A stretch of DNA of 47,242 nucleotides, from positions 1 through 47,242 of IMG/VR virus record IMGVR_UViG_3300010376_000014. One strand, written 5' to 3'. Made by a program: the position numbers and the translations under genes. Shown here piece after piece: positions 18,155-35,768 of the stretch (position 1 is the stretch's first letter; every line of letters starts with the position of its first letter). This DNA is from a virus. The notes under the pieces were generated by a model that worked only from the letters and a program-made list of their open reading frames with translations, searched no databases and was not told where the DNA came from.

Positions 18155-18847
18155 ATGAGTCCAATCGACCCAAACCTGTTGAGGAAGATCAAGGCGCTCC
18201 TCAACCTGTCCGACCCCGCGCGTGGTGGGACAGAAGCTGAACGCGACAACGCGCTCCAAAAGGCTCAAGAGCTCATGTTCAAGCATGACCTCGAAGCCTT
18301 CGATCTCATCACCGAGGACGAACTCGACCACGGAGTCACCCACGAGGACATGATGATCAGTGGTAAGACGAAGATGTGGATTGGGCAACTGCTCAACGAT
18401 CTCGCCCTGGCGATGAACTGCCGCGTGGTCCGCACGAAGTATTCAGTCAAGCAGGCGAAGTTCACCATTATCGGAACCCCGGATAACATCCGATTCGTCA
18501 AGGACATACACGCAGCTCTCGTTCCGTGGCTTCAATCACAAAACAAGATCCACCGACTACGCGACTTGCCCTACAACCCTCTTGCCTACAATCGATCCTT
18601 CTACAACGCCGCAGGCGGACGGATATACTTCCGACTGAAGGAACAACAGGACTATCTCGCGTCCCAAAATGCCAAGGGCACCGAACTCGTGCTCGTCCGC
18701 GAGAGCCACAATGAGGACTACATGGCAAAGCTCTTCGGCGCGGTCCGGACGCGACGCGGTCCGAGCTACAAGAACCAGGCAGGTGCCATCGCAGGACACC
18801 AAGCCGGTTCCCAAGCAGACTTGAGTCGGGGAAAGCTCAATCAATAG
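18155..18847 (+). CDS. DUF2786-like domain protein (230 aa)
   Basis: N-terminus LLRKIKALLNLSDPARGGTEAERDNALQKAQELM matches the DUF2786 signature from memory. Confidence 0.6.
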   Translation: MSPIDPNLLRKIKALLNLSDPARGGTEAERDNALQKAQELMFKHDLEAFDLITEDELDHGVTHEDMMISGKTKMWIGQLLNDLALAMNCRVVRTKYSVKQAKFTIIGTPDNIRFVKDIHAALVPWLQSQNKIHRLRDLPYNPLAYNRSFYNAAGGRIYFRLKEQQDYLASQNAKGTELVLVRESHNEDYMAKLFGAVRTRRGPSYKNQAGAIAGHQAGSQADLSRGKLNQ

Positions 18848-21162: not shown

Positions 21163-22557
21163 TCAATCCCTTTTCTTCAACACTACGATCCACGGTTTGC
21201 GTCCCCCTACACGCGATGCCTGTCCCTCCTTCAGATCCAACATCAGAGACTTTTCTGCCCAACTCATAATCGTCTTTCGGGTCTTCTCGAATAGCTCCGC
21301 AAGCGCAGTCACACTCAATCCCTCATGCCTCGAGACATAGAACTCAAAGTCCGACATTGGTTCAGGCGCCTTTGTCTTCGATTCTTCTGTGACTGTAACT
21401 GCATAGCCTTCGCTACCTCCGACGTACTCTATCTCGAAGTCAGGGAAGGGCTCAAAGTTACGGAACTCACGTTCGACATGAGTAATGTAGGGTTCAGGCT
21501 TGCTAAGGTAAAGACCACACTCTACCCAAGCGTGGAACGCCTGACTACCGAGCATCCGTTGACCGCCGACTTTGGGGTTGTTAGCAGACGGCTTCGCGTA
21601 GTGGTGGATCAGCATGATCGAGCAACCCGTGAGTTCCTTCAACGCCTGCAGATTGAGCAGTATCGGACGCATGGACGAAGCGCTATTCTCATCTCCGGAA
21701 CCAAGCATCATCTGAAGCGGATCGAGAATAACAAGCTTTACTTCTCTGCTCACAATCTCATGTTGCAGGGCTTCCAGATCTGGAACGGAAGTGAGGTCGA
21801 ATTGCTTTCGACTGCGCACATACATCGGTATGGAGCTCGGGAATTTCACGGAGATACCACGTGGAGTTACGTCGATCTCCCCACCAAGTTCTTTACTGCG
21901 CGCGACCCACCGCATCCGTTTGTGTAACTCGGACGCTGACAGTTCCTCCTGGATGTACAACACAGGTAGTGCCTTCGGAACATCGAAGTACCCAAACACC
22001 TTGGTCCCTGTGGCTACAGACAGAGCAATATCGATGGCGAGCCATGACTTACGTACCTTCGGTTCGCCAGCCACAATACCGTGAGCCTGTTCGGACCATA
22101 GTCCCTGTATCATCCAACCGGGATCCTTTACCTCCCGAGCCAGAATCTTGTCGACTGATTCCGACCAGATCTCACGACGGGTTGCTCGACCATTGGTTGA
22201 TCGTCCGTCACCTGTGTCCACGGCGTGTAACCCCCAGGCCTTGAGGATGTCTCGCCGAAGCCGATTGATATCTCCACCGAACTTGTTCCAGCTTGAACAT
22301 TGCACAAGAGACTGTACCTCGAGCGGAGCCAAGCCGGATTGGAATAGAGCGAAATACAGGCGCCACATCGCCTTCGATCGGTCACCCTGGGGTTCACGAG
22401 AAAAGAGCCGCTCAAGTACGTACCGAGGAATGCGATCTCGATGGATCTCCAGAACTTGCTCAGCTTTCGGTATCTCACCTCCATCGTCTGTGACCTCGCC
22501 TCCAAGCTCACGCAGTTTTGGTAATTGCTTCAACAACTTCTTAGGATCTACGTCCAT
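21163..22557 (-). CDS. RepA/DnaB-like (AAA_25-type) replicative helicase (464 aa)
   Basis: Walker B-like KLVILDPLQMM. IMLIHHYAKPS motif. Degenerate Walker A GEPKVRKS. Start taken at MDVDPKK (ATG 22557). Confidence 0.7.
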   Translation of the reverse strand: MDVDPKKLLKQLPKLRELGGEVTDDGGEIPKAEQVLEIHRDRIPRYVLERLFSREPQGDRSKAMWRLYFALFQSGLAPLEVQSLVQCSSWNKFGGDINRLRRDILKAWGLHAVDTGDGRSTNGRATRREIWSESVDKILAREVKDPGWMIQGLWSEQAHGIVAGEPKVRKSWLAIDIALSVATGTKVFGYFDVPKALPVLYIQEELSASELHKRMRWVARSKELGGEIDVTPRGISVKFPSSIPMYVRSRKQFDLTSVPDLEALQHEIVSREVKLVILDPLQMMLGSGDENSASSMRPILLNLQALKELTGCSIMLIHHYAKPSANNPKVGGQRMLGSQAFHAWVECGLYLSKPEPYITHVEREFRNFEPFPDFEIEYVGGSEGYAVTVTEESKTKAPEPMSDFEFYVSRHEGLSVTALAELFEKTRKTIMSWAEKSLMLDLKEGQASRVGGRKPWIVVLKKRD

Positions 22558-23039
22558 AAAAGTTTGACCTTGGGTCGTAGCGGATATTTGTGGTTGATAG
22601 TTCCAGGTATGCGCAGCACCTGTGTCCGATCCCATCCTCCTTTGTCTGCACCGATTGCATAGGTCAGTCTTTGATTCAGCTCTGAGTGTTCTTGCGGTTG
22701 GCACTTCTGCGTCATTCGCCACAAACATTGGAAGCGATTGGGCGATGACTCCCACGCTGTTGTCGGACGTGGGTCCACGTATTCAGGATCCACATCGTCG
22801 AGGTCGGCATACAACCAAATCGATGGTAGCATGAGTTCCTTGCGACGTTTCGGACCTGAAAAGACATTCGGACAAAAGTACAGATCACCATCCACATTGG
22901 GTATCTCGACCTCGCCGCCTTTATTCTTCTTCCATGAGAACGCCACGTCATACCACGTGTCTTGCTTCACGGATACAAAGACGAAGCCCGTCGCGTTCTG
23001 CTCATCCCACACCATCTTGACAAAGTCAACCGGTTCCAC
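22548..23039 (-). CDS. Primase-polymerase (Prim-Pol/RepB'-like) domain protein (163 aa)
   Basis: LYADLDD (DxD) and VLRIPGTINHKY motifs. Overlaps the helicase start by 10 nt. Confidence 0.6.
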   Translation of the reverse strand: MEPVDFVKMVWDEQNATGFVFVSVKQDTWYDVAFSWKKNKGGEVEIPNVDGDLYFCPNVFSGPKRRKELMLPSIWLYADLDDVDPEYVDPRPTTAWESSPNRFQCLWRMTQKCQPQEHSELNQRLTYAIGADKGGWDRTQVLRIPGTINHKYPLRPKVKLLWT

Positions 23040-23866: not shown

Positions 23867-24152
23867 GGGCATGCGTGAGTGGATACGACACATGGATACT
23901 CACGAACCGCCGACGTATGAGGCAGGTGTGTCTGAAAGGTGGATATGGTTCAAGGAAGGCAAGTGCATGTGCTGCAGTGCTCCACTTGGCACGTACACCA
24001 CAGCTATCGTCAATGCTGGGGGGCTCGCAGGAGTCTTTTGCACAGGCGTCTGTGCGACTGACATAGCGAACATGGGGTTCATTCAGGAGCTGTACGATGA
24101 CATCCAACAAAAGATCAAGTTCCGAGGCGGTAGCGGTGACGCTCCTGAGTGA
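23829..24152 (+). CDS. Hypothetical Cys-rich protein (107 aa)
   Basis: GTG 23829 preceded by AGGAGA. Confidence 0.5.
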   Translation: MSTEGDVYADIPEGMREWIRHMDTHEPPTYEAGVSERWIWFKEGKCMCCSAPLGTYTTAIVNAGGLAGVFCTGVCATDIANMGFIQELYDDIQQKIKFRGGSGDAPE

Positions 24153-25494
24153 GGACAATAGGTACAAGTTCAAGACGAAGCCCTACGCATATCAAGTCGA
24201 GGCGCTGAAGAAACTCGCCAAATTGCCTCGAGGTGGTGGCTTGTACATGGAGATGGGCACAGGCAAGACGAAGGTCGCTATCGACTACGCAGGCATCGAG
24301 AAGCAACTCGGTGAGATAGACACAGTGTTGGTCGTGTGTCCACTGTCCGTATTGGGCGTGTGGGACCTCGAGATCCAGAAGCACTCGAACAAGAATGGAC
24401 TCAAGTGGCACATTGTCAACTACGACAAAATCATCCGAGATCCATGGCAAGACGAAGTGCTCAAGATCACACGAGACAACAAGACGCTGGTGATATTCGA
24501 TGAAGCCCACAAGATCAAGAACCCTCAAGCGAAGAGGTCCAAAATCGCGTACGTTCTTGGGCGTCTCGCTCAACGTGTCCTCCTACTCACAGGTACTCCG
24601 ATCGGGAAATCGCCTTTGGATCTGTTCAGTCAATTCAGGGCGCTGGACGATACAATTCTCGGTAGCTCGTGGGGTGTCTTCAAGCGTACGTATGCGCAGT
24701 GGGGCGGATACGGTGGTTATCAGCTCGTCCGGTACATGAACCTGAAGCAACTCATGGTCAAGGTCGGACCAAACGTCTATCAGATCAAGAAACAGGATGC
24801 CCTTGATCTACCCGCGCGCAGACACGAGATAGTTCCTGTGACTCTAGAGCGATCCCGTAGAGCATACGATCAGATGGCCTGGGAACGCATAGCGGAGATC
24901 GAGGAAGGCATAGTCGAGGCACCGATCATTCTCACGAAGCTACTTCGACTATCGCAGATGACAGGCGGGTGGGTCAAGGATGACACAGGCATCGTGCGTA
25001 AAGTTGGAGACGAGAAGATGAAGGTACTCACCGATCTCGTCGGCGACATGTGGGAGTCCGATCGACTGAAGATCGTTATCTTCTGTCGCTTCCTCGCGGA
25101 ACTCAAGGCGATATGCTATGCAGTACGAGACATTGGGTATTCACCCATCCCGTTTTACGGTAAGACACCACCCAAGAAGCGAGAGCAACTCCTAGCACGA
25201 TTCGATGAGACCGATGAACCCACAGCGTTTGTAGCGCAGACAGCCACTGGGTCACTTGGTATCTCCCTTGTGGCTGCCAGCGAAGCGATATTCTACAGTC
25301 ACAGCTACGACTACATTGAGTTCGCCCAGGCGTGTGATCGTCTACATCGCATAGGACAGCATCATCCTGTGACCTACTACCATCTACTAGCCACAGATAC
25401 GATAGACGAAGCTGTGTGGATGGCGATACGTACAAAGCGCAACCTAGCAGACCTGGTCATGAAGCATGCTGAACTCCTGACAAAGTCGTCATAA
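24097..25494 (+). CDS. SNF2-family DEAD/H-box helicase (465 aa)
   Basis: GTGKT Walker A. DEAHKIKN motif II. C-terminal helicase motif AQTATGSLGISL...CDRLHRIGQ. Confidence 0.85.
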   Translation: MTSNKRSSSEAVAVTLLSEDNRYKFKTKPYAYQVEALKKLAKLPRGGGLYMEMGTGKTKVAIDYAGIEKQLGEIDTVLVVCPLSVLGVWDLEIQKHSNKNGLKWHIVNYDKIIRDPWQDEVLKITRDNKTLVIFDEAHKIKNPQAKRSKIAYVLGRLAQRVLLLTGTPIGKSPLDLFSQFRALDDTILGSSWGVFKRTYAQWGGYGGYQLVRYMNLKQLMVKVGPNVYQIKKQDALDLPARRHEIVPVTLERSRRAYDQMAWERIAEIEEGIVEAPIILTKLLRLSQMTGGWVKDDTGIVRKVGDEKMKVLTDLVGDMWESDRLKIVIFCRFLAELKAICYAVRDIGYSPIPFYGKTPPKKREQLLARFDETDEPTAFVAQTATGSLGISLVAASEAIFYSHSYDYIEFAQACDRLHRIGQHHPVTYYHLLATDTIDEAVWMAIRTKRNLADLVMKHAELLTKSS

Positions 25495-25522: not shown

Positions 25523-25837
25523 ATGTCATACCCAGCAGGTACCCCATATGAAGCCCAAACAGAAGAAGAATCCGAGCACGCCGAAGACTCTCACCCTGCG
25601 GATATACAGGGTAACTTGTCTTCAGAGATATCCGCCGAAAGTGGGCATCCACTCGGCGACTCCGAAGGTGAACTCACACTCGCACACCTCCAAGGTGGGC
25701 TCGATATCGAAGATGACGAAGACCGTGAAGAGCAGGTCACAGGGAGAGGGGTGAATCAGAATGCTGATAGTAGAAGGACCCGATGGGAGCGGGAAAACGA
25801 GCCTATGCAAAGCTCTTTCGGCAGAGCTGAACCTTGA
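25523..25837 (+). CDS. Strongly acidic protein (104 aa)
   Basis: AGGAGG Shine-Dalgarno. D/E-rich. Its 3' end overlaps the kinase gene by 77 nt in another frame. Confidence 0.5.
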   Translation: MSYPAGTPYEAQTEEESEHAEDSHPADIQGNLSSEISAESGHPLGDSEGELTLAHLQGGLDIEDDEDREEQVTGRGVNQNADSRRTRWERENEPMQSSFGRAEP

Positions 25838-26336
25838 ACTCGCGCCGATATATGCCCGCAGTCGTAGGGACATGCCCAAGACAGGTGTCAGGCGCCGCGT
25901 GTGGAATGGTATCGGCGCGATGCTGCGGGGGCAGATATTCATCCACGATCGTCTGTATTTCTCTGAGATAGTGTACGGCACGATACTCAGGGGCGGTATA
26001 GACTTCAGCATCGAAGAGATCACGTGGATCAAATATACATTAGACGAGTTCGAGGTACCCATCATCCTGTGTCTACCACCATGGGAGGTTACATGGGAGA
26101 ATATGATGGACGATATCGGTGCGCAGCAAAGCATCGATAAACTGCGAGAGATCTACAGGGTGTACCAAGGTATGACTCAAGATCCTGAGTTGCTCGCTCG
26201 TCCATACGACTACACTTCGGAGCATGATACGGTAGAAGATTTGATCACGTGGATCGAACCAAAACTCAACGATCTAAGGAGACGCTTTGGAGTTACTGAT
26301 GGGGGACGCACAGATAGCGCTAGCGCCGGAACCTAG
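25761..26336 (+). CDS. P-loop (deoxy)nucleoside monophosphate kinase, thymidylate-kinase-like (191 aa)
   Basis: N-terminal MLIVEGPDGSGKTS, as in Tmk/dNMP kinases. Confidence 0.7.
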   Translation: MLIVEGPDGSGKTSLCKALSAELNLELAPIYARSRRDMPKTGVRRRVWNGIGAMLRGQIFIHDRLYFSEIVYGTILRGGIDFSIEEITWIKYTLDEFEVPIILCLPPWEVTWENMMDDIGAQQSIDKLREIYRVYQGMTQDPELLARPYDYTSEHDTVEDLITWIEPKLNDLRRRFGVTDGGRTDSASAGT

Positions 26337-26478
26337 TGGTGGCTTCGTCTTGAAGATAGCCCATGAGAAGTTGCCGTTCACGATATGGATACCTGTCGAG
26401 AGGGATCGAGCGGACACATTCGCTGATGCTCTCATGAACACAATGAGAAGGAAGCGAGTGGTGGTGCCTAATGCGTGA
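26287..26478 (+). CDS. Hypothetical protein (63 aa)
   Basis: TTG start with AAGGAGA 5 nt upstream. ORF track. Confidence 0.45.
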   Translation: MELLMGDAQIALAPEPSGGFVLKIAHEKLPFTIWIPVERDRADTFADALMNTMRRKRVVVPNA

Positions 26479-26794
26479 ACTGCAGAAAGAGCTCCACGAG
26501 TGGAGGATGTACAACTTTCCCGAGTGTACGCCCGAGGACCAATTCATGGGCATGGTCGAGGAAATGGGCGAGATTGCTCACGCTCTGCTCAAGACGAAGC
26601 AAGGCATCCGCATCGAGGACGAGATTCAGGGTCACGCCAAGGTCAGGGACGGCATCGCAGATCTAGTGATCTACACAATGGGACTATGCTCACTGATGGG
26701 ATGGGACCTCGAGGCTCTCGTCTCATCCGTGGCTAACAATGAGGTCATGCAACGCGACTGGATCAAATATCCGAAGGACGGCATGACCACATGA
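26471..26794 (+). CDS. mazG: MazG-like all-alpha nucleoside triphosphate pyrophosphohydrolase (107 aa)
   Basis: MGMVEEMGEIAHALLK...DGIADLVIYTMGL fits the EExxE...D layout of small phage MazG proteins. Confidence 0.7.
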   Translation: MRELQKELHEWRMYNFPECTPEDQFMGMVEEMGEIAHALLKTKQGIRIEDEIQGHAKVRDGIADLVIYTMGLCSLMGWDLEALVSSVANNEVMQRDWIKYPKDGMTT

Positions 26795-27168
26795 AAGACA
26801 CAGACTGGGCATACTTAGCTGGACTCATCGACGGAGAGGGATGCATTAGTACAGTGCATACTAATCCTCGTAATGGACAATTCAACGCCAAGATAGCTAT
26901 AGTGAACACAGACAAAACCGTCCTCGATTGGATAGTGAAAACATTCGCTGTGGGTAATGTGTATCCAAGACGCCTGAGGCTTCCCATGAAGCAATCATGG
27001 CGATGGCAACTGGCTGCAGGTTCGTCTGTTTCCCGCATCCTGAATGGGGTTTATCCGTATCTCATCATCAAGAAGGACCAAGCAGTACTCGCTATTGAAC
27101 TATGCTCTCGACCGGCAAAGCGCCGACAACTCGAGATCTACGGGGCACTTCGTGAGGCAAAGCGATGA
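26791..27168 (+). CDS. LAGLIDADG-family homing endonuclease (125 aa)
   Basis: Canonical YLAGLIDGEGC motif. ATGA overlaps at both ends. Visibly more A/T-rich than the flanks. Confidence 0.85.
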   Translation: MKDTDWAYLAGLIDGEGCISTVHTNPRNGQFNAKIAIVNTDKTVLDWIVKTFAVGNVYPRRLRLPMKQSWRWQLAAGSSVSRILNGVYPYLIIKKDQAVLAIELCSRPAKRRQLEIYGALREAKR

Positions 27169-28004
27169 GAATGAAAAAGTATCGTGACCTTACTGAGTTG
27201 TGGAACAGGGAAGCTGAATCAATGGTGCTAGCGACCTGGAAAGAGATCGACTTCGTAAGCGGACTTGACGTGATTCGCTACGACAACCTCGTCGGCTGTG
27301 ACTCGATGGCATATAAATTCGATCTCGGGAGACATCTGTGGCTGAATCGTTCTCGCTTCACTGTGCTCCAGCGAGAGTATCTCGACCTTGCCCAATTAGA
27401 GTCCTTCTTGGGTAGGGCCACCGAAATAGGACTTGGTGGTGTCAAGCACGGTGTGGTCACATCGATGCCCTTTCGCTCGCCTGAGTTCCGTGCGAAGAAG
27501 CATAGGTGGGGTGGATGCATGTCCTCATTGGCGTTCCGCATGTCCGCCGAAGGACAACCTGTTTTGGTACTGCAGTCTCGTGTGACCTACATCACATACA
27601 TGGGTGGCTGTGATCTTGCCTTGTGCCACGTGATAGCAAGAGAGATAGGGCAGCGTATTGGCAAGATACCCGAAGACTTTGCATTCCGGTGGAACTGTGC
27701 ATCTCATCAGGCTCATTCATTCAAAGGCATCCCATATCTGTTCCACGCCAATTTGTGGCCTGTGATTGTAGACGAAAGATCAATCGAGCAATACCCTGAC
27801 TCTGACTATCCAGCATTGAAATTGATCCGAAAGTGGGCTCGGATCATTGTTGAACGTCATGAAGTCGGGGTACCTCTTGATGAAGAGAAATACGGACCCC
27901 TCCGACGAGTCAGACGCCGATACGAAGAATGGATGAGGGACGAGCCGTTACCGAAAGTACCCGTCACATCGTTGACCCTACAACCACTTCGGGAACGTGG
28001 GTGA
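27165..28004 (+). CDS. Highly divergent thymidylate-synthase-fold-like protein (279 aa), function unknown
   Basis: By-eye alignment: HGVVTSMPFRSPE ~ SRRIIVSAWNVGE; GGCMSSLAFR ~ APCHAFFQFY; LVLQSRVTYITYMGGCDLALCHVIA ~ [29 protein letters not shown]. Confidence 0.4.
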   Translation: MRMKKYRDLTELWNREAESMVLATWKEIDFVSGLDVIRYDNLVGCDSMAYKFDLGRHLWLNRSRFTVLQREYLDLAQLESFLGRATEIGLGGVKHGVVTSMPFRSPEFRAKKHRWGGCMSSLAFRMSAEGQPVLVLQSRVTYITYMGGCDLALCHVIAREIGQRIGKIPEDFAFRWNCASHQAHSFKGIPYLFHANLWPVIVDERSIEQYPDSDYPALKLIRKWARIIVERHEVGVPLDEEKYGPLRRVRRRYEEWMRDEPLPKVPVTSLTLQPLRERG

Positions 28005-28185
28005 GAAACGCATAGGAAAGCGTAAAATACAGAAGCGCAAGTGGGACAACGCAAATCGGCGAACCGTCTGCTCTGTGTGTGGCACTTTGATATGGAACCA
28101 CCGAGAGCACTCAGGTCTGTGTCGATCCTGCAGTACGAAGCGTAGACCTCGAGATGAACATGGGAATCTACTGCCGTACAAATAA
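27997..28185 (+). CDS. Small basic Zn-ribbon protein (62 aa)
   Basis: CSVCG...CRSC. GTG start overlapping the upstream gene. Confidence 0.4.
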   Translation: MGEKRIGKRKIQKRKWDNANRRTVCSVCGTLIWNHREHSGLCRSCSTKRRPRDEHGNLLPYK

Positions 28186-28197
28186 TGCCACGTAGTG

Positions 28198-28226
28198 CGA
28201 CATGGAGGAAACGAGGATGCGATAAT
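28198..28226 (+). promoter_or_regulatory. Possible promoter P5: weak -35 (CGACAT) - 17 nt (ending GGATGC) - GATAAT
   Basis: Shares the GGATGCGA(C/T)AAT core with P1-P3. The -35 element is poor. Confidence 0.35.
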
Positions 28227-28262
28227 AATGTTGCACACGTACATACACATAGGAGGTCAACC

Positions 28263-28691
28263 GTGGTAGCAAAAAAGACAGACAGACCGAAGTTCAATCC
28301 TCAGGAGCTCATCGATGAGCAGGTTGCCCAGATCAACCGCGCCATCGACGAGATAGACAAGCGCATGAAGCCTTACGAGACACTCGCAGCGAAGAAGTTG
28401 CAGCTTGTGGCTGCTCGTCGTGCGCTACTAGGGACAGGCAACAGACTCACCGGCAACGCGGGTCATCGTGTGACGCTCGATGATCTGATCTCGTTCATCT
28501 CAGAGAATCCCGGCGCGTCTCCAGGTCAAATGGCTGAACACTTCGGTGTCACGCAGGGGACGATCAGCAGTCACTTGTACCGCAATAAGGATCGCTTCGT
28601 GCGGAACAACGGATCGTACTGGGTGAAGGATCCCGCCGCTGGGATCAACACGTCTGCCGATGTGGAGAAGGAGGACGATGACGAGACCTGA
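28263..28691 (+). CDS. Winged-helix/HTH putative transcription regulator (142 aa)
   Basis: GTG 28263 preceded by TAGGAGGT. GQMAEHFGVTQGTISSHLYRNKDRF HTH-like segment. Confidence 0.55.
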   Translation: MVAKKTDRPKFNPQELIDEQVAQINRAIDEIDKRMKPYETLAAKKLQLVAARRALLGTGNRLTGNAGHRVTLDDLISFISENPGASPGQMAEHFGVTQGTISSHLYRNKDRFVRNNGSYWVKDPAAGINTSADVEKEDDDET

Positions 28692-28854
28692 TTGGGAAGC
28701 TGTCGCCTGTCCACACTGTGGTGCGAAGGTTGGAGAACATTGCAAGAATCCCGACGGATCGAAGTACCAATACGTCCACCGCAAGCGCTACGAGGCATAC
28801 GCGAAGGAGGCAGAGCATGCAGTTCGAGCAGATATACAACTCCCTCCTCGCTAA
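28678..28854 (+). CDS. Small Zn-finger protein (58 aa)
   Basis: CPHCGAKVGEHC. Overlaps the next gene by 38 nt. Confidence 0.45.
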   Translation: MTRPDWEAVACPHCGAKVGEHCKNPDGSKYQYVHRKRYEAYAKEAEHAVRADIQLPPR

Positions 28855-29587
28855 CGTGATCGAGGGCATGCCTGTGGATCGTGGCGAGTGGCACGCGAAG
28901 GACGTGCGTGGCATACCGAAGCTCGTGTCGTACGAGGTCAGAGACATCGCCTTCGATCTGTGGTGTCCGCCGACGATGGTGGAGCTGCAGGACGATTACA
29001 AGCCGAATCTGCCCTGGGCAGAGGATCACTTTCAGGAGCGAGTCAGTGGGCAACCCTTGAATCCCCCACCGTCGCATGCGTGGTGGCCCTTTGGCAATAC
29101 ACAGACCCACATGCAGGAAGGCAAGTTCAGCCACTCGTATCCCGAGCGGTATTGGCCCAAGCGTGCGGGGGCTCAGCGATACTCAGAGGAGCTAGGCGGT
29201 ATCCGATTCGAGTGGGGCGATCTCGATGATCTCGTGTCCTTGCTGAGTGAGCGTCCCATGACGCGACAAGCATACCTGCCTGTGTGGTTTCCTGAAGATC
29301 TGACAGCCGCTCGTGAGAAGGAGCGCTGTCCCTGCTCTTTGGGTTATCACTTTCTCGTGCATGAGGAACACAACGGACTGAGGATGGACTGTGCGTATTT
29401 CATGCGGTCTTGTGACTTCGTGCGGCACTTCAGGGACGATATGTATCTGACCGCCCGACTGATGCAGTGGGTCGGTGACAAGATCGAGATTCAACCATCG
29501 GAGCTACACGTCTACATCTCGTCACTCCACTGCATAGAGGGTGACCTCGACAATCTGAGGGAGGAGTATGAGAATCTCTCGCGATGA
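28817..29587 (+). CDS. Thymidylate synthase / dCMP hydroxymethylase family protein (256 aa)
   Basis: AAGGAGG Shine-Dalgarno. RQAYLPVWFPED, CPCSLGYHFLV, YFMRSCDFVRHFRDDMYL and SSLHCIEGD align by eye with T4 gp42 (NMRSNDVVFGFRNDYAW, GSLHVYSRH) and with ThyA. Confidence 0.65.
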   Translation: MQFEQIYNSLLANVIEGMPVDRGEWHAKDVRGIPKLVSYEVRDIAFDLWCPPTMVELQDDYKPNLPWAEDHFQERVSGQPLNPPPSHAWWPFGNTQTHMQEGKFSHSYPERYWPKRAGAQRYSEELGGIRFEWGDLDDLVSLLSERPMTRQAYLPVWFPEDLTAAREKERCPCSLGYHFLVHEEHNGLRMDCAYFMRSCDFVRHFRDDMYLTARLMQWVGDKIEIQPSELHVYISSLHCIEGDLDNLREEYENLSR

Positions 29588-30077
29588 CATGTTTCTCCGT
29601 GTGGCTGAAGTCATCGCGCTGCGCGGTACGTGTCCACGAGCCACAGTTGGAGCAGTGCTTGTCCGTCACGGACGCATCATTAGCATCGGGTACAATGGCG
29701 CCCCATCTGGGATGCCGCACTGCGAGGATGAGGGTTGCGACGTCCCATTTGCGGGAGGAGGATGCGTTCGAGCGATTCACGCAGAGACTAATGCGATACT
29801 CTGGGCAGCACGTGAGGGCGTCTCTACAGATCAAACTACGATGTATTGCACACATGCGCCCTGCGTCAACTGTGCCCTAACTGTGGCTATGGCGGGTATC
29901 ACTGAGTTTCATTATCTATATAACTACCGTGATCCTGGTGGATTGAAGATCCTTACCGACTACGACGTTGCACATTGGAGGCGGAGTGGAGCCGGATCAG
30001 TTGCAGATGCAGAAGATAGTGAGAGTGATGCAGCGGATCGAAATAGTAGTAATCTCTCAGACGGAAGAGGGATCTGA
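29568..30077 (+). CDS. dCMP deaminase (169 aa)
   Basis: Zinc-site motifs HAETNA and PCVNCA. Typical CMP/dCMP deaminase layout. Confidence 0.85.
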   Translation: MRISRDDMFLRVAEVIALRGTCPRATVGAVLVRHGRIISIGYNGAPSGMPHCEDEGCDVPFAGGGCVRAIHAETNAILWAAREGVSTDQTTMYCTHAPCVNCALTVAMAGITEFHYLYNYRDPGGLKILTDYDVAHWRRSGAGSVADAEDSESDAADRNSSNLSDGRGI

Positions 30078-30131
30078 GCGCGAGGTCGTGATTGACTCCA
30101 TCATTCGTCCGATTCCGATACCATACGAACA

Positions 30132-32504
30132 GTGAACTGGAGAGATCAAATCCGAGACAGTAAGTGCACAGCCTGTGGCTTGCATGAGAACGCCCAGTAC
30201 GTTTGCCTGATGGGGACAGGCAAACGTTCTTCTCGTCTCATGATTATCGGGGAGGCACCAGGTGCCCGAGAAGATGAAGAACACCGAGCCTTTGTGGGTC
30301 CCGCGGGGCAACTTCTCAACGATCTATTATCCGAAGTGGGGTTGTCTCGTGAAGATGCCTATATCTCAAACGCCGTCAAGTGTCGTCCGCCAAGCAACGA
30401 GACCCCAACGCGAGTCCATATCAAAGCGTGTGCGCAGTATCTCATCCGTGAGCTCGAGGAGGTAGAGCCTGAATATGTACTTGCTCTTGGCAATTCTGCG
30501 CTCCAAGCCCTTACCGGGAGATCTGGTATTACTAAGTATCGGGGGCGACTGCATAGTCTTGGAGGAACCCAGGTCCTCCCCACCTTTCACCCTGCAGCGG
30601 CGCTCCGATCTCCAAGGTATCTCCCGTCGATCAAGGCAGACTTTCGTGCGCTTGCCCGATACATGGATAACTCACACATGGGGAGTAATGGACTATCCAC
30701 ACGTGTCCGCATCATCCGTAATGCTGGACAACTCAGGTGGCTCATCAACCGCCTAGCCACAGCTGAGGTCATCGCGTTCGATCTGGAGACTACAGGGCTA
30801 AACGAGTTCGCGGAAGGAGCCAAGATTGTTACCCTCGGAGTCGCGTGGGAACCTGGTTGTGCTGCAGTCGTCCCACTTCATCACAGCGCAGGAACTTTTG
30901 CGGAACCTGCCAAGATCTTACATCAGCTCAAACCGGTTATGGAGAGAACAGACTGTCGTTACGTTGGGCATAACGCCAAGTTTGATACGAGATGGCTTGG
31001 ACGTTTCGGTATCTATACACCGACTTCCTTCGATACGATGCTTGCCTCCCACCTTCTCGACGAGAACGGACAACACGGACTCAAGCCCCTATCACAACTC
31101 CATCTCGGAGCTCTTGACTACGATATTGGGGATGATGTCAAGGACGCCTACAACACTAACCTAAAGCGACTTTGTATCTACAACGGAAAGGATTGTGACT
31201 ATACTTTACGACTATATCTTCGTCTTCGGGAAGAGCTCAAACAGCAGCCCCGTCTCGCAAGGCTCTTCACCCGACTCACCATGCCTGCTAGTCGTGCTCT
31301 GCTACGAGTTGAAGTTGCTGGGCTTCAAGTGAATACCGACAGGCTCATCAACAGGGCTAAGGAGACAGAATACAAGATCCTGAAATGCAAGAACTACATG
31401 GACCAATACGTGCCGGAAGATATGAAACCAATCAACTACAACTCTCCAGCACAGATTGGCCTGTGGCTATTCGGTTCGATGGGGCTGCCTATACTTGAGA
31501 GGACCAAGAGTGGGGCGCCATCGACCCGTGAGGCAGTGCTATTCCAACTCGCGAAGCAGCATAAGGCAGTCGAGGTCCTGTTGCGCTATCGGAAGTGGTC
31601 CAAGTATTACTCCACTTACATCACGGCATGGGCTGAGGCTATTGATCCAAGAGGACGTCTTCACACTTCTTACCTCTTGCATGGAACTGTCACCGGACGA
31701 CTATCCAGCCGCAATCCAAATCTCCAACAAGTCCCACGGGACCCGTTTATACGCGGCATTCTCGGAGCACCGCTCGGATGGAAGTTTGTCGAAGCTGATT
31801 ATTCGCAGGTTGAGTTGAGGATAGCAGCCATGATCGCACAGGAAAGAAGCATGTTACGGCTATTCGCTCTCGGGGAAGATATACATATGAGCACCGCATG
31901 CTTCATGACAGGAAAGATCCCAGCGCAGGTCACGAGTGAGGAACGGAAGAAAGCGAAAGCCGTCAACTTCGGCTTCCTTTATGGCATGGGTGCTCAGAAG
32001 TTCGTGACCTACGCACGGGACAGTTATGATGTGGAGGTTACCCTTGCTGAAGCAGAAAAGGTCAGAGACCGTTTCTTTGAACGGTATCCACGTCTACGCA
32101 CGTGGCATGATAGACAGCGAAGACTCGCAACGAGATACGGTCGAGTGCAGTCGCCTCTTGGGCGGATACGGCACTTGCCAGATGTGCGGTCGACAGATTC
32201 AGACGTACGTGCTGAGTCGGAACGACAGGCTATCAATTCGCCCGTCCAGTCCTTTGCGAGTGATCTCATGCTCGTGTCCCTTACACGGCTGGATCGCGCC
32301 TTCCCTAACAACGTGGCGCGCACCGTAGGATCAGTGCACGATGCTCTGCTCTTCGAGGTTAGAGAGCAATACGTGGATGAAGTGTGTGCCAAGATCAAGG
32401 AGGTTATGGAGGATACAGACTACGTAAAGAAAGTATTTGGAACCGAGATTACAGTGCCGATCGAAGTCGAGATAAAGGTCAGCGATCATTGGGGCGAGTC
32501 ATGA
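30132..32504 (+). CDS. polA: Fusion: family-4 uracil-DNA glycosylase-like domain + 3'-5' exonuclease + family A DNA polymerase (790 aa)
   Basis: UDG4: CTACGL...GEAPG...KCRPP...FHPAAALR. Exo: FDLETTGL, HNAKFD, YNGKDCDY. Pol: DYSQVELR, RKKAKAVNFGFLYGMG, SVHDALLFEV. Confidence 0.9.
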   Translation: MNWRDQIRDSKCTACGLHENAQYVCLMGTGKRSSRLMIIGEAPGAREDEEHRAFVGPAGQLLNDLLSEVGLSREDAYISNAVKCRPPSNETPTRVHIKACAQYLIRELEEVEPEYVLALGNSALQALTGRSGITKYRGRLHSLGGTQVLPTFHPAAALRSPRYLPSIKADFRALARYMDNSHMGSNGLSTRVRIIRNAGQLRWLINRLATAEVIAFDLETTGLNEFAEGAKIVTLGVAWEPGCAAVVPLHHSAGTFAEPAKILHQLKPVMERTDCRYVGHNAKFDTRWLGRFGIYTPTSFDTMLASHLLDENGQHGLKPLSQLHLGALDYDIGDDVKDAYNTNLKRLCIYNGKDCDYTLRLYLRLREELKQQPRLARLFTRLTMPASRALLRVEVAGLQVNTDRLINRAKETEYKILKCKNYMDQYVPEDMKPINYNSPAQIGLWLFGSMGLPILERTKSGAPSTREAVLFQLAKQHKAVEVLLRYRKWSKYYSTYITAWAEAIDPRGRLHTSYLLHGTVTGRLSSRNPNLQQVPRDPFIRGILGAPLGWKFVEADYSQVELRIAAMIAQERSMLRLFALGEDIHMSTACFMTGKIPAQVTSEERKKAKAVNFGFLYGMGAQKFVTYARDSYDVEVTLAEAEKVRDRFFERYPRLRTWHDRQRRLATRYGRVQSPLGRIRHLPDVRSTDSDVRAESERQAINSPVQSFASDLMLVSLTRLDRAFPNNVARTVGSVHDALLFEVREQYVDEVCAKIKEVMEDTDYVKKVFGTEITVPIEVEIKVSDHWGES

Positions 32505-33271
32505 TCAGCGTCTTCACTCCCTCCCACAATCCCCTGTGGCTAGATCAATGTCACGAGAGCCTGAGGACCCAGACACTATGGGATTGGGAATGGATCGTGT
32601 TGCTCAACGGTGACGCGGAGTGGGAGTGTGACGATCCCCAGGTCCGGATATATCGGTTCCCACGATCAGGTACGGTTGGACTCATGAAAGCTGTGGCCTG
32701 TACGCACGCTTCTGGCAGTATCTTGGTCGAGCTAGATCATGACGATGTACTTCTGCCTGACGCACTGATGGAAATAGACCGAGCGTTCAGTGAGAATCCG
32801 ACAGCCACACTCGTGTACAGCGACTTCGCCCAAATGTTCGAGGATGGTACGCCGGATGAATCAGATTTCGACTTGAGGAATGGATGGGAGTCAACACCGG
32901 AGTACTATGAGGGACAAACGTATAAGCGCTGGCGTGCTCCCAAGCCGTGGCCCGTGAATGTTGGACTGATCTGGTTCGCGCCTAATCATATCCGCGCGTT
33001 CCGCACATCTACCTACCACGAGGTCGGTGGGTACGACCCCAACAGACGTGTGCTCGACGATCAAGATCTGATGATGCGGCTGTATATGAGAGGACCATTT
33101 ATCCACATCGACAGACTACTGTACTTGGTCAGGGTACATGACGGCAACACTCAAAAAGACCCCGAGCTCAATGCTCAGATCCAATGGGAGACAGTTCAAA
33201 TGTATTGCCAACAGAGGGAGGCACTCCATTTGGCATATATGTCTCATAACGGGTTGATACAATTACAGTGA
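32501..33271 (+). CDS. Family 2 (GT-A) glycosyltransferase (256 aa)
   Basis: MISVFTPSHNPLWLDQCHESLRTQT...LVELDHDDVLLPDAL (DxD). ATGA overlap with the polA stop. Confidence 0.75.
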   Translation: MISVFTPSHNPLWLDQCHESLRTQTLWDWEWIVLLNGDAEWECDDPQVRIYRFPRSGTVGLMKAVACTHASGSILVELDHDDVLLPDALMEIDRAFSENPTATLVYSDFAQMFEDGTPDESDFDLRNGWESTPEYYEGQTYKRWRAPKPWPVNVGLIWFAPNHIRAFRTSTYHEVGGYDPNRRVLDDQDLMMRLYMRGPFIHIDRLLYLVRVHDGNTQKDPELNAQIQWETVQMYCQQREALHLAYMSHNGLIQLQ

Positions 33272-33287
33272 AACAGAGGTCACAGGG

Positions 33288-33512
33288 ATGGCGAAGGTCA
33301 ATAGGACAAAGAGGATTCTCGCTGGGAGGATGCTCCTAGTAGCGTTCCACCACATCAATGCGATGAGGACCGTGTTGTGGCTAGAGGACTTGAACGCTCT
33401 GGGTCTGACTCCTAGTGAGAAAGAAAAGTTGGCAGATATCAATAAGCGAGTCAATGACATAGCTAACGAGGTCAGGGCAATGGGATGGAAAATCAACCGT
33501 GAGAATCTCTAA
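33288..33512 (+). CDS. Hypothetical protein (74 aa)
   Basis: ORF track. Confidence 0.5.
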   Translation: MAKVNRTKRILAGRMLLVAFHHINAMRTVLWLEDLNALGLTPSEKEKLADINKRVNDIANEVRAMGWKINRENL

Positions 33513-34455
33513 CGCGAAGTTGAAGACGTTCCGTCGTTGTGCCAAGCAATACGACTACAAGTACGTCCAACGCCTGAGGTCTAAGCGTAAGGGCGTAGCC
33601 CTCGAGAGAGGATCGTGGATACACGAACTGCTTATGGTCCACAACGATGGCGAGGACTGGCGTGTTCGGCAGGCAGCACTAACTAAGCAGTTCAACAATC
33701 TCTTCGAAGAAGAAAGAGAGGAGCTAGGCGATCTGCCGGGAGAATGCAGTCGCATCATGAAAGCATACCTAAGAACCTACAAGTCGGATGAGCAACGGTA
33801 TCGTGTCATAGATACAGAGATGGACGAGATCGTCACTCTGCCGAATGGGCTGTATCTCGAGGTCATCATAGACGTTATAGTGGAGGACGTGATCGATGGG
33901 GGATTGTGGATTCGGGATTACAAGACAAGGCGAAGCTTCCATGATCCTGCCATCATCATGCGAGATCCTCAACTTACGCTCTATTATTGGGCAGTTGAGC
34001 ACATGGGTTATACGCCGCTACGGGGCGCTATTGTTGATGAGATTAGAACAAAAGCCCCAGCTGTCCCAGAGCTTCTCAAAAGTGGGGGGTTGTCCCGCCG
34101 GAGGAACATCGACACGGATGTCTATACGTACGCGGCGGAGATCCGACGACACGGTCTCTCTATCGAACTCTATAGGGATCATCTTCTCCATATCGCGAAG
34201 AACCAACATGACCGGTTCTTCCGTCGGACCTCGATGCCGAAGGACCCTCCAGTTATCCGAACAACCATGCGAGAGGCGGTCGAGACGGCGCAGGCAATAC
34301 AGATGGCTGAGCGGTACATGAGATTTCCCCGCACACCGGACTTCACATGTGAGCACTCCTGTGAGTTCAAAGATCTCTGTCTTGTGGAACTATATGGGGG
34401 CGATGGGTCTTCGTTGATCAAAATGAACTTTGAGGTGAGCAAGCGTGGCGACTAA
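33499..34455 (+). CDS. PD-(D/E)XK Cas4/RecB-like exonuclease with 4-Cys cluster (318 aa)
   Basis: N-terminal KLKTFRRCAKQY. IIDVIVED...WIRDYKT. QLTLYYWA. C-terminal CEHSCEFKDLC. Confidence 0.7.
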   Translation: MRISNAKLKTFRRCAKQYDYKYVQRLRSKRKGVALERGSWIHELLMVHNDGEDWRVRQAALTKQFNNLFEEEREELGDLPGECSRIMKAYLRTYKSDEQRYRVIDTEMDEIVTLPNGLYLEVIIDVIVEDVIDGGLWIRDYKTRRSFHDPAIIMRDPQLTLYYWAVEHMGYTPLRGAIVDEIRTKAPAVPELLKSGGLSRRRNIDTDVYTYAAEIRRHGLSIELYRDHLLHIAKNQHDRFFRRTSMPKDPPVIRTTMREAVETAQAIQMAERYMRFPRTPDFTCEHSCEFKDLCLVELYGGDGSSLIKMNFEVSKRGD

Positions 34456-35218
34456 CCAACGGTCACAGATCCAAGCAGTTAGGAAGAGAATCGTTCCTGT
34501 GGCTCAAACTTCGCCCTATATCAGAGCACTATTCTATGGGTATAATGGACGTGGTAAGACGCGCCTAGCAGCCACAGGACCGAAGGCGTTGGTGGTCGAT
34601 ATCAACGAGAAGGGCACAAAGTCGATCAGGAGCTATACAGGTGTGGATCTATTCGAGACAGAAAAGTGGGAGGACGTCACTTACCTGTACTGGTTTCTTA
34701 GGAGTGCTGATCATTCCTACGAGACCGTGGTTATCGACACCGCGACTTCCCTGGCTGATGTGTGCCTGTCCCACGTGCTCAAGGAAGCGGGAGATAGAGA
34801 TCCTCTTCGAGACCCTGCAACAGCGTCTCAGCGAGACTGGGGTAAAGTCGCTAAGCTTATGGGCGACCTCATCCTACGATACCGAAACCTCCCAATGCAC
34901 GTCGTCTTTCTCTCCCAAGTCCGTGCTGTTGACGATGAAGAGTCAGGTGAGACTCTCAAAGTCCCTGATCTTTCACCGAAGCCAAGAGGTATCCTAATGT
35001 CAGCGGTTGATATAATTGGTTATCTCTACAAAACGGAGGTGAGAGTAGTCAATCGCAAAACGAAGCGTGAGACGAAGGACTGGGAGACGCGGCTCCTAAC
35101 AGGACCGCATAACATTTACCCAACGAAGGACCAAACCGGCGCACTACCGAGGATCATGAGGGCGCCAACAATGCCACAGATCATAGAACTCAACAACAAC
35201 GGAGGTAGCAATGGCTAA
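34445..35218 (+). CDS. RecA-like AAA_24/Sak4-type ATPase (257 aa)
   Basis: Walker A YGYNGRGKTRLAAT. Walker B-like TVVIDTATS. Followed by a DUF669-like gene, as in Sak4 modules. Confidence 0.6.
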   Translation: MATNQRSQIQAVRKRIVPVAQTSPYIRALFYGYNGRGKTRLAATGPKALVVDINEKGTKSIRSYTGVDLFETEKWEDVTYLYWFLRSADHSYETVVIDTATSLADVCLSHVLKEAGDRDPLRDPATASQRDWGKVAKLMGDLILRYRNLPMHVVFLSQVRAVDDEESGETLKVPDLSPKPRGILMSAVDIIGYLYKTEVRVVNRKTKRETKDWETRLLTGPHNIYPTKDQTGALPRIMRAPTMPQIIELNNNGGSNG

Positions 35219-35768
35219 GGGAGGCGGACCCATCGTCGACTTCACTGGGGTACAATCGGGTGGAGGTCGCCCGCGTATCCCGGAGGGCGATCATCTCGCA
35301 AAGGTCGCGAGTGTCAAGCAGGAAACGTCATCCAAGGGTAACGAGATGCTCGTATGGCGCTTCGAGGTCAGCAATGGGCGTGGGCGAGGAAAGGTGCTAC
35401 AGACGTACACGTCCTTGAATACTGAGGCGCTTTGGAAGCTCCGAGGGTTGCTCGAAGCGTTAGGGGTCGCAGTTCCTGACGGACGCGCACAACTGCGTCT
35501 GAAGAACTACATCGGCAAAGAGATAGGCATTACGGTAATCGATGAGGAGTACAATAACAGGATCTACTCCAACATCACAGACTTCATCTCTGCCGATTCA
35601 CTAACCGATGAAGACGTGGACGATGAGGAAGAGGACGAAGAAGAGGAAGAGGAGGATGAAGAGGAAGAGGCAACTCCTCCACCGAAGGCTAAGAAGTCCA
35701 AGAAGGCTAAGAGACGCGAAGCCGAGGAGGAAGAGGAGATCGAGGACATAGACCTCGACGAGTTGTAA
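35211..35768 (+). CDS. DUF669-like putative ssDNA-binding protein with acidic C-terminal tail (185 aa)
   Basis: Position after the Sak4-like ATPase. Long D/E tail ending IEDIDLDEL. Confidence 0.5.
   Translation: MAKGGGPIVDFTGVQSGGGRPRIPEGDHLAKVASVKQETSSKGNEMLVWRFEVSNGRGRGKVLQTYTSLNTEALWKLRGLLEALGVAVPDGRAQLRLKNYIGKEIGITVIDEEYNNRIYSNITDFISADSLTDEDVDDEEEDEEEEEEDEEEEATPPPKAKKSKKAKRREAEEEEEIEDIDLDEL

Follow-up and report, generated by a model that had tools for sequence, protein, structure and literature searches.

A recurrent phage gene cassette with two divergent thymidylate-synthase-fold proteins and its possible role in cytosine replacement

Why should a phage keep two homologues of thymidylate synthase (TS), both of them far from ThyA, among its replication genes, and which base would they act on? 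The question is raised by a 47,242-nucleotide stretch of viral DNA (positions 1 to 47,242 of IMG/VR record IMGVR_UViG_3300010376_000014, here called the window), in which a tailed phage of ~47 kb has its module for replication and nucleotide metabolism, and specifically by the genes between positions 25761 and 33271. A first reading of the letters, made without database searches (the sequence-only reading), had proposed here an operon for hydroxymethyl-pyrimidine DNA, possibly glycosylated, formed by a Tmk-like deoxynucleoside monophosphate (dNMP) kinase, a MazG-like pyrophosphatase, two TS-fold proteins, a dCMP deaminase, a DNA polymerase fused to a uracil-DNA glycosylase (UDG) domain and a family 2 glycosyltransferase (GT2). 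Pfam, PHROG, TIGRFAM and Foldseek evidence places all seven genes on the plus strand, at or near where that reading had put them (Table 1), and the co-oriented, mostly overlapping arrangement it described agrees with the spacing, the junctions being mostly overlaps of 1-20 nt with three gaps of 54-134 nt. We call the TS-fold proteins TS1 and TS2 in their order along the strand. On balance, the residue patterns suggest that the core of this gene set probably replaces deoxycytidine in the phage DNA by a C5-modified deoxycytidine, in a pre-replicative way.

TS2 is recognised by its sequence. Its PF00303 match is limited to residues 135-250, Foldseek recovers TS structures at 1e-11, and the best PDB profile matches are the CMP hydroxymethylase MilA and N229D mutants of the L. 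casei TS. We have aligned it to E. coli ThyA (the sequence of which was verified against PDB), to T4 gp42 and to the TS homologue of phage Xp12. Cys146, Arg166, Ser167 and the pterin-binding Asp169 are kept, and four positions are changed with respect to ThyA: Asn177 to Asp, His147 to Ser/Thr, Leu143 to Arg and Arg127 to Gln. Besides, TS2 stops ~45 residues before the C-terminus of ThyA and has no tail to close over the active site during hydride transfer. The motif R-x-P-C-[ST]-L-G ... RS[CST]D......[DN]D was invariant in 12 loci from phages whose hosts belong to four bacterial phyla, and the Asp at the Asn177 position was found in the window and in all 12. The change Asn177Asp is known to switch TS from dUMP to dCMP, and residue 177 is the top discriminator between the TS genes of cytosine-modified and unmodified metavirome contigs (PMC8670742). 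From its residues, TS2 is predicted to transfer a one-carbon unit to C5 of dCMP. A related phage, Microbacterium phage Triscuit, carries TS1 (gp64), TS2 (gp66) and also a fully canonical ThyA (gp67; L002 6831-7628), with Asn177, Leu143, His147 and the C-terminal tail. This ThyA lies directly after TS2, which argues that TS2 is not simply the thymidylate synthase of the phage.

TS1 is a different case. Searches against Pfam, NCBIfam and PDB, with the single sequence and with a 28-sequence profile, gave as sole match a chance one to TNFAIP3 (E 0.33). The AlphaFold2 model built on 28 homologues had a pLDDT of 92.8 and a pTM of 0.90, and every Foldseek match listed against PDB (50 shown; 89 with E<=1e-3) belonged to the TS superfamily, with TM-scores of 0.4-0.64. 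The leading ones were the dCMP hydroxylase of phage HY126, the CMP hydroxymethylase MilA and the T4 dCMP hydroxymethylase (9iqu, 5jnh and 6l18, respectively; TM-scores to 9iqu were 0.51/0.64). The assignment of both proteins to the TS fold, and their distance from ThyA, as the sequence-only reading had it, are thus sustained when 27165..28004 and 28817..29587 are compared with known profiles and folds: TS2 falls in the TS superfamily by Pfam and Foldseek, and TS1 by structure only (AlphaFold2 and Foldseek), with no Pfam or PDB sequence match.

The TS1 family comprises 257 representative clusters in 1.84e9 proteins (exhaustive hidden Markov model, HMM, search), and conservation was measured over 116 full-length representatives, each less than 50% identical to the others. 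Y72, G116, C118, R139 and W176 are invariant, and S138 (99%), R64 (97%) and D150 (97%, the rest being Glu) are nearly so. An alignment of TS1 to TS with hhalign pairs C118 with Cys146, R139 with Arg166, D150 with Asn177, Y142 with Asp169 and W115 with Leu143; these equivalences rest on hhalign together with the 11-residue spacing between the Arg and the Asp and the predicted secondary structure (strand-loop-helix). On this alignment TS1 has the core of the superfamily, i.e., the nucleophilic cysteine (Cys118), the phosphate-binding arginine (Arg139) and the residue that reads the base (Asp150). The folate pterin-binding Asp169 is not kept; its place is taken by Tyr142, and by Tyr or Phe in 97 of the 116 representatives (84%). 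From these residues TS1 appears to be active, with its cysteine forming a covalent adduct on a cytosine nucleotide, and to have given up the folate-binding Asp. Both TS-fold proteins carry the cytosine-specifying Asp and would therefore target dCMP and not dUMP, TS1 being in all likelihood specific for cytosine nucleotides as judged by its Asp150. A canonical td-like dUMP enzyme, considered for TS1, is ruled out by the same residue. As for what TS1 does with the base, its pattern appears to match none of the known signatures; that it encodes a new chemistry is a speculative possibility.

These genes are not peculiar to the window. By tblastn on phage records, TS1 was found in 85 and TS2 in 116-154. 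We examined 13 other loci, those of Muddy, Triscuit, KimJongPhill, Almagne, Serbin, Clostridium perfringens P21, Brevundimonas Polewnik and six metagenomic contigs, and in them the order was fixed: helicase, P-loop kinase, MazG/dUTPase-like protein, TS1, TS2, (deaminase), PolA, PD-(D/E)XK nuclease and AAA_24 ATPase. The hosts of the carriers include Mycobacterium (Muddy), Gordonia, Streptomyces, Microbacterium, Pseudomonas, Serratia, Brevundimonas and Clostridium. Muddy gp50-gp41 and the equivalents in Gordonia cluster CT, Streptomyces Zukovirus, Triscuit, Almagne, Serbin, Polewnik and P21 are true homologues in the same order as in the window, from which they differ in that none has the GT2 or the LAGLIDADG gene. 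The HMMs of TS1 and TS2 match every protein found in the corresponding slot, with weak TS1 matches for Serbin, Almagne and Polewnik. In the GenBank records of related phages TS1 is labelled "hypothetical protein" and TS2 "thymidylate synthase". Such recurrence in 13 independent loci is far beyond chance. What makes the cassette unusual is the second TS-fold family, TS1, strictly paired with TS2. We found no functional study of the cassette in the literature and, although widespread and crossing phyla, it is apparently unstudied.

Among the remaining enzymes, two have scores below the family thresholds. The kinase is below threshold for PF02223 (25.9 bits, cut-off 27) and for TIGR00041 (25.9 bits, cut-off 83, P-loop only); its positional equivalents in Muddy (gp49), Triscuit (gp62), Almagne and Serbin are annotated as thymidylate kinase. 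The MazG-like protein is also under the Pfam cut-offs (PF12643 22.7 bits, cut-off 27; PF01503 16.8 bits, cut-off 21.3), and its slot is annotated as MazG, dUTPase or PRA-PH across all the related loci. The deaminase has the zinc motifs HAE and PCxxC and is 34% identical to the Xp12 deaminase gp58. No deaminase is annotated between TS2 and the polymerase in C. perfringens P21 (L013) and Polewnik (L014), as read from annotation only, with the small open reading frames (ORFs) there unchecked; the deaminase thus appears to be optional in the cassette, unlike TS1 and TS2, which always occur together. The N-terminal domain of the polymerase passes the family-4 UDG model (TIGR00758, 149.6 bits, cut-off 125.3) and has the GEAPG and HPAA motifs and the four cysteines (CxxC...C...C) of that family, with a predicted glycosylase activity. 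PolA with a fused UDG domain is present in the six metagenomic contigs, which are the loci with Pfam domains on record, and the complete UDG-exonuclease-PolA fusion was seen in L005, L007, L021 and L022. The last of these, a 64-kb relative, has besides a stand-alone UDG-family protein on the opposite strand (L022 2955-3443, minus).

Table 1. Genes of the plus-strand replication block of the window, with the evidence on which each was named
Feature	Position	Strand	Evidence
SNF2-type helicase	24097..25494	+	PF00176 1.3e-18, PF00271 7e-12; conserved neighbour upstream of the cassette
P-loop dNMP kinase (Tmk-like)	25761..26336	+	PHROG 761 "thymidylate kinase" 9.2e-18, residues 2-177
63-aa ORF between kinase and MazG	26287..26478	+	ORF list
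MazG-like all-alpha NTP pyrophosphatase	26471..26794	+	PHROG 715 8.7e-8, PHROG 1992 3.5e-7
Free-standing LAGLIDADG homing endonuclease	26791..27168	+	PF00961 23.2 bits (cut-off 23.1), PHROG 5046 6e-23
TS1, divergent TS-fold enzyme (phrog_13667), 279 aa	27165..28004	+	AlphaFold2 and Foldseek
62-aa Cys-rich ORF	27997..28185	+	weak DUF7567 match, 16.3 bits, below cut-off
168-aa protein, weak winged-helix/HTH signal	28185..28691	+	MarR_2, HTH_5, HTH_24 at residues 101-131, all under Pfam cut-offs
TS2, TS homologue with dCMP-type active site	28817..29587	+	PF00303 32.3 bits (cut-off 24.3), PHROG 160 1.6e-25
dCMP-deaminase-family enzyme	29568..30077	+	PF00383 2e-20 (73 bits, cut-off 25), PHROG 174 5e-48, TIGR02571 4e-37
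UDG-exo-PolA replicative polymerase	30132..32504	+	PF03167 1.6e-34 (residues 28-162), PF01612 4e-27, PF00476 2.8e-95
GT2 (GT-A fold) glycosyltransferase	32501..33271	+	PF00535 29.2 bits (cut-off 23.3)
PD-(D/E)XK exonuclease	33499-34455	+	label from syntenic genes in L005, L007 (PF12705)
AAA_24 ATPase	34445-35218	+	label from syntenic genes in L005, L007 (PF13479); TIGR01618 5e-10
Protein in DUF669-gene slot	35211-35768	+	label from syntenic genes in L005, L007 (PF05037)

There is prior evidence that this kind of gene neighbourhood goes with modified cytosine. MetaGPA screens physically select DNA in which cytosine is fully modified (PMC8670742; bioRxiv 10.1101/2024.12.05.627091). In them, 70% of the dCMP deaminases on modified contigs had a TS gene at most 3 kb away, the figure for unmodified contigs being 6%, and the top co-localised domains on modified contigs were TS, PRA-PH, DNA_pol_A and DNA_pol_A_exo1 (bioRxiv 10.1101/2024.12.05.627091); dCMP-type residues were present in 85% of those TS genes (bioRxiv 10.1101/2024.12.05.627091; PMC8670742). 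Searches of the large ORFs of the window found no ThyA, ThyX or DHFR. Modification is the best reading because the layout of the window is that of the published modified contigs, Triscuit keeps a ThyA beside its TS2, and the window has none of these three enzymes among its large ORFs.

Folds, residue patterns, synteny and distribution are what we have read directly, and from them we infer the activities and the modification itself, which could proceed as follows. The pyrophosphatase, as a putative analogue of T4 gp56, would turn dCTP (and dUTP) into the monophosphate, keeping dCTP out of the pool and feeding TS2. The cysteine of TS2 would then attack C6 of dCMP and add at C5 a one-carbon unit from methylene-tetrahydrofolate, to give either 5-hydroxymethyl-dCMP or 5-methyl-dCMP, between which the known signatures do not decide. 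TS1 would carry out a second step on the cytosine nucleotide, or else act as the obligate partner of TS2. By analogy with T4 gp1, the kinase would phosphorylate the modified dCMP, the host nucleoside diphosphate kinase would complete the triphosphate, and the phage polymerase would incorporate it. The deaminase would supply the thymidine branch, making dUMP from dCMP or, in an Xp12-like manner, dT nucleotides from 5-methyl-dC nucleotides.

Several points weigh against cytosine replacement as we have drawn it, and the first concern the signatures of TS2. In these alignments, TS2 misses one defining residue in each of four subfamilies, i.e., ThyA, the T4-type hydroxymethylase, the Xp12-type methylase and the 5-hydroxy-dCMP synthase. 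With the T4 type it shares the catalytic Cys, the Asp at 177 and the missing C-terminal tail. However, three residues before the Cys, where Asp or Glu is essential, TS2 has Arg (R-x-P-C), which is invariant in 30 homologues and in the 12 loci; the T4 enzyme needs its Asp145, and the D145N mutant is inactive (PMC6400193). The region of T4 Ser94/Tyr96 falls in TS2 in a clade-specific insertion where the alignment is unreliable: a Tyr or Trp aligns to Tyr94, and there is no Ser two residues earlier. The Xp12 methylase keeps the C-terminal tail and has a neighbouring DHFR gene, whereas TS2 has no tail and no DHFR was found among the large ORFs of the window. Three features together keep TS2 from fitting any one product signature, the Arg in place of the essential Asp of T4, the tail missing unlike in Xp12, and the lack of an Asp169Asn change. 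The latter is the mark of the 5-hydroxy-dCMP synthases, a function that we considered for both proteins and that is ruled out, TS2 keeping the Asp (RSCD) and TS1 having Tyr/Phe. For TS1, the profile alignment to TS had a low probability, 9.9% in local mode with high local confidence, when more TS1 sequences were set against a mixture of TS sequences, and no global alignment was obtained; an earlier profile-profile comparison of TS1 with TS2 had given 0.2%. On the side of the phages, we found no paper on modified DNA in Muddy, Gordonia cluster CT, Serbin or Almagne, isolates that have been handled for years. The metavirome association holds at the level of Pfam domains and is not tied to this clade, a role in dTTP supply would account for these genes too, and all the activities of the cassette are predictions.

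Of the sequence-only claim of a hydroxymethyl-pyrimidine, then, the pyrimidine can be narrowed to cytosine, by the Asp at 177 in both proteins, and the hydroxymethyl group is not secured, given the Arg that TS2 has for the Asp/Glu of T4. A tentative extension of cytosine replacement gives TS1 more weight: keeping the Cys/Arg/Asp core and having no folate binding, it might make together with TS2 an undescribed cytosine modification, standard across the cassette, which the GT2 might decorate further. It is a doubtful reading. It would hold for phages infecting Actinobacteria, Proteobacteria and Firmicutes, with the therapeutic phage Muddy among them, and for this phage alone as far as the GT2 is concerned.

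Another variant, also unlikely in our estimation, is a sub-case of cytosine replacement that specifies the product. As in Xp12, TS2 (or TS1) would make 5-methyl-dCMP, 5-methylcytosine would fully replace cytosine, and the deaminase would convert part of the 5-methyl-dC pool to dT; a dUMP-dependent thymidylate synthase would be unneeded since the deaminase yields dT nucleotides, and neither ThyA nor ThyX of canonical type is among the large ORFs of the window. The TS homologue and the deaminase are adjacent in Xp12, like here, and 5 of 7 deaminase-linked Asp177 TS homologues taken from modified metavirome contigs made 5-methyl-dCMP, with the linked deaminase making dTTP from 5-methyl-dCTP (bioRxiv 10.1101/2024.12.05.627091). 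TS1 has a Trp at the Leu143 position, where a bulky hydrophobic residue goes with methyl over hydroxymethyl products (PMC13326640). However, TS2 is 28% identical to the Xp12 TS over 40% of its length, TS1 is without the folate-binding Asp169, the DHFR of Xp12 has no counterpart among the large ORFs here, and the deaminase is dispensable in some cassettes.

At about the same level of probability, and hence improbable as well, stands an ordinary thymidylate supply for a phage with canonical DNA. The deaminase would make dUMP, a TS-fold enzyme dTMP and the kinase dTDP, with MazG clearing dUTP and the UDG removing uracil. The GenBank names of the syntenic genes in Muddy, Serbin, Almagne and Gordonia phages (thymidylate kinase, dUTPase, thymidylate synthase and dCMP deaminase) say precisely this, TS2 is above the Pfam cut-off for thymidylate synthase, the family-4 UDG motifs are kept, which fits uracil avoidance, and we found no report in the literature of modified DNA in the isolates. 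Nonetheless, the base-specifying position has Asp and not Asn, in TS2 at 12 of 12 loci and in TS1 in 97% of 116 representatives with Glu in the rest; TS2 is changed at His147, Leu143 and Arg127 and has lost the tail for hydride transfer; the canonical ThyA of Triscuit would make the TS2 beside it redundant; and two extra TS-fold genes are unneeded for dTMP.

The GT2 raises the last alternative, the one nearest to the sequence-only reading, where 5-hydroxymethyl-dCMP (or hydroxymethyl-dUMP) comes from a TS-fold enzyme as in T4 and the GT2 glycosylates the base in the DNA with a host UDP-sugar. Its true start is the ATG at 32501, in an ATGA overlap with the PolA stop, and the DxD-type motifs LDHDD and DDQD are present. 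The GC content and the GC at third codon positions (GC3) match those of its neighbours, and this composition together with the coupling to PolA indicates expression early with the replication genes. GT-A-fold phage glycosylators of 5-hydroxymethylcytosine do exist, often near TS homologues, dCMP deaminases and polymerases in metaviromes (bioRxiv 10.1101/2023.12.21.572611), and TS2 is without the C-terminal tail like the T4 dCMP hydroxymethylase (PMC6400193). However, none of the 13 related cassettes has the GT2, not even that of the sister contig L005, where TS1 is 82% identical and a 63-aa ORF fills the slot, and the GT2 had no match in PHROG. Proteins at 50-62% identity, which are its nearest relatives, are for the most part chromosomal GT2+Methyltransf_11 proteins of ~413 aa; where the organism is named it is always one of the Actinobacteria, with contigs that reach 1.28 Mb and labels of cell-wall or O-antigen biosynthesis, and the one cellular relative whose neighbourhood we inspected had an ordinary bacterial one. 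None of the five viral relatives (L009, L016, L018, L019, L020; 41-62% identity) has a homologue of a cassette gene (TS, deaminase, kinase, MazG or PolA) within the 10 kb or less available on each side. The relative in L020 comes after three collagen-repeat fibre-like genes, among GT1, GT4 and GT9 genes and beside the tail sheath gene; in cyanophage S-CRM01 a relative is near psbA and hli. The best PDB sequence match of the GT2 is chondroitin synthase, a polysaccharide synthase.

The GT2 is a later insertion in this one phage and not part of the system, so that the claim which had included it does not survive its absence from the 13 cassettes, the mostly cellular nature of its relatives and the lack of cassette genes around the viral ones. 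Adjacency and translational coupling to the polymerase gene are insufficient to assign it to DNA modification. More probably it glycosylates a protein (e.g., the collagen-like fibre of the phage) or a cell-envelope glycan rather than DNA, a DNA role being quite unlikely. Phage glycosyltransferases that glycosylate virion proteins have been reported for cluster F1 mycobacteriophages, in work cited by PMC11256854. The collagen fibre of the window is a candidate acceptor because the relative in L020 directly follows three collagen-repeat genes. As for a T4-like pathway completed by this GT2, the distribution just described and the Arg of TS2, at the place of the Asp that is essential for hydroxymethylation in T4 (PMC6400193), make it the least probable of the alternatives.

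Two observations on these regions may be added. The collagen-triple-helix-repeat protein of the window (11177-12640, minus) adjoins a tail-collar-domain protein (12637-13314, minus), and the pair sits in the most GC-rich stretch, with a GC peak of 0.64 at 10-12 kb. The island of L020 (1811-18627) holds the three collagen-repeat proteins, one of them with PA14, the GT2+methyltransferase, a DUF6445 protein, a 1127-aa FkbM-methyltransferase+GT1 protein and GT4-like and GT9 proteins, just upstream of the tail sheath gene.

How does the cassette compare with the systems already described? It is like the T4 and Xp12 pathways in logic and a member of neither at the level of the enzymes. The enzyme classes fit a pre-replicative replacement of a pyrimidine in the style of T4 or Xp12, as had been proposed. 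The 5-hydroxymethylcytosine pathway of T4 (gp56, gp42, gp1, cd, td and the alpha/beta-glucosyltransferases) has the same classes and the same pre-replicative logic as the window, and gp42 is like TS2 in its catalytic Cys, in the Asp that specifies cytosine and in having no C-terminal tail. The differences are Asp145 of gp42 versus the Arg of TS2, a canonical td versus a second TS-fold enzyme that bears Asp, and a family B polymerase versus one of family A with a fused UDG. The T4 glucosyltransferases are GT-B enzymes, and the GT2 of the window, unlike the T4 set, is not conserved with its cassette. Xp12 (TS gp59, deaminase gp58, DHFR) resembles the window in having an Asp177-type TS followed by the deaminase gene, in a genome of siphovirus size with PolA. 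However, its TS has the full C-terminal tail of ThyA and Asn three residues before the Cys, and its cluster includes DHFR and has no TS1, MazG or kinase, with PolA ~5 kb upstream instead of directly downstream.

The 5-hydroxy-dCMP synthases of RB69, DLP3 and HY126 are flavin-dependent TS homologues for which Asp169 to Asn is diagnostic (PMC13326640; PDB 9iqu, 9iqc). Like TS1 and TS2 they have the TS fold, the Cys and the Asp177; they act on dCMP, the predicted substrate here, and have left folate chemistry, and the best Foldseek match of TS1 is to one of them, 9iqu. They differ in the diagnostic Asn, which is absent here (Asp in TS2, Tyr/Phe in TS1). The cytosine-modified MetaGPA contigs share, by Pfam domain, the set TS(Asp177), PRA-PH, dCMP deaminase, DNA_pol_A and exonuclease within ~3 kb, and TS1 is not described in those papers (PMC8670742; bioRxiv 10.1101/2024.12.05.627091). 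The JGT/TarP-like DNA glycosyltransferases are similar to the GT2 in the GT-A fold, the small size and the possible place beside polymerase or TS genes (bioRxiv 10.1101/2023.12.21.572611); unlike them, the GT2 has solved relatives of the chondroitin synthase type and not TarP, and viral relatives that are not near TS or 5mYOX genes. The sequence-only reading had taken the combination of genes for an undescribed one, which is no longer tenable: GT-A-fold DNA glycosyltransferases beside TS homologues had already been described (bioRxiv 10.1101/2023.12.21.572611), and TS(Asp177) with PRA-PH, dCMP deaminase and PolA is the published signature of cytosine-modified contigs (PMC8670742; bioRxiv 10.1101/2024.12.05.627091).

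As regards the surroundings, the window makes up nearly all of a metagenomic phage contig of 47,260 bp and has a GC of 54%, with minus-strand structural genes at both ends (P22-like portal, large terminase, tail collar, collagen-repeat fibre and SU10-type adaptor) and a plus-strand replication block at about 23.4 to 36.7 kb. When the 9-kb stretch was compared with phage records by megablast, the sole match was one of 64 nt in the polymerase. The helicase slot is shared with L005, L007, L021, L022, Muddy (gp50), Triscuit (gp58) and KimJongPhill (gp74), and the three genes downstream (PD-(D/E)XK, AAA_24 and the DUF669 slot) keep their order in Muddy gp43-41, Almagne and Serbin. The last of them codes for a protein with a long acidic C-terminal tail, with D/E runs around KAKKSKKAKRR, which recalls the acidic tails of single-stranded-DNA-binding proteins.

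Four more ORFs are found in the stretch beyond the seven named ones. The LAGLIDADG gene has 4-nt overlaps with both the MazG and the TS1 genes and is missing from L005 and L006, in which those two genes overlap directly; its GC3 (0.476) is the lowest among the long genes apart from dCD. It appears to be a mobile element that has entered a conserved operon recently, and it is not a component of the pathway. The slot of the 63-aa ORF between kinase and MazG is filled by ORFs of 84-88 aa in L005 and L007, a match of position only, and those of the 62-aa and 168-aa proteins by ORFs of 56 and 140 aa in L005. From its weak HTH signal, the 168-aa protein is a possible regulator.

Elsewhere in the window, an AAA_25 helicase (530 aa) and a 163-aa protein, the latter in the slot of a gene annotated as RepB_primase in L005, lie on the minus strand at 21163-23039, divergent from the plus-strand block, and form a second set of replication genes on the opposite strand. 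A DUF2786/DUF7168 protein (18155-18847, plus) is located in the early region of small ORFs. The clues to the host disagree: a TS1 fragment (P0047, 77% identical) was binned in a metagenome-assembled genome of Ktedonobacteraceae (Chloroflexota), while the named relatives of the GT2 are all from Actinobacteria (P0255, P0279, P0291, P0314 and P0332 among the GT2 homologues) and the viral relative L018 encodes WhiB.

If cytosine replacement is true, dozens of cultured phages annotated with a "thymidylate synthase" would have fully modified cytosine, among them Muddy, in compassionate-use therapy against Mycobacterium abscessus. It would bear on how restriction and CRISPR are evaded, on host range, on nanopore sequencing and engineering, and on the innate-immune sensing of the phages with the cassette, of which isolates are available. 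The TS1 family would then add an enzyme to a superfamily that has recently given a switch from folate to flavin in the 5-hydroxy-dCMP synthases.

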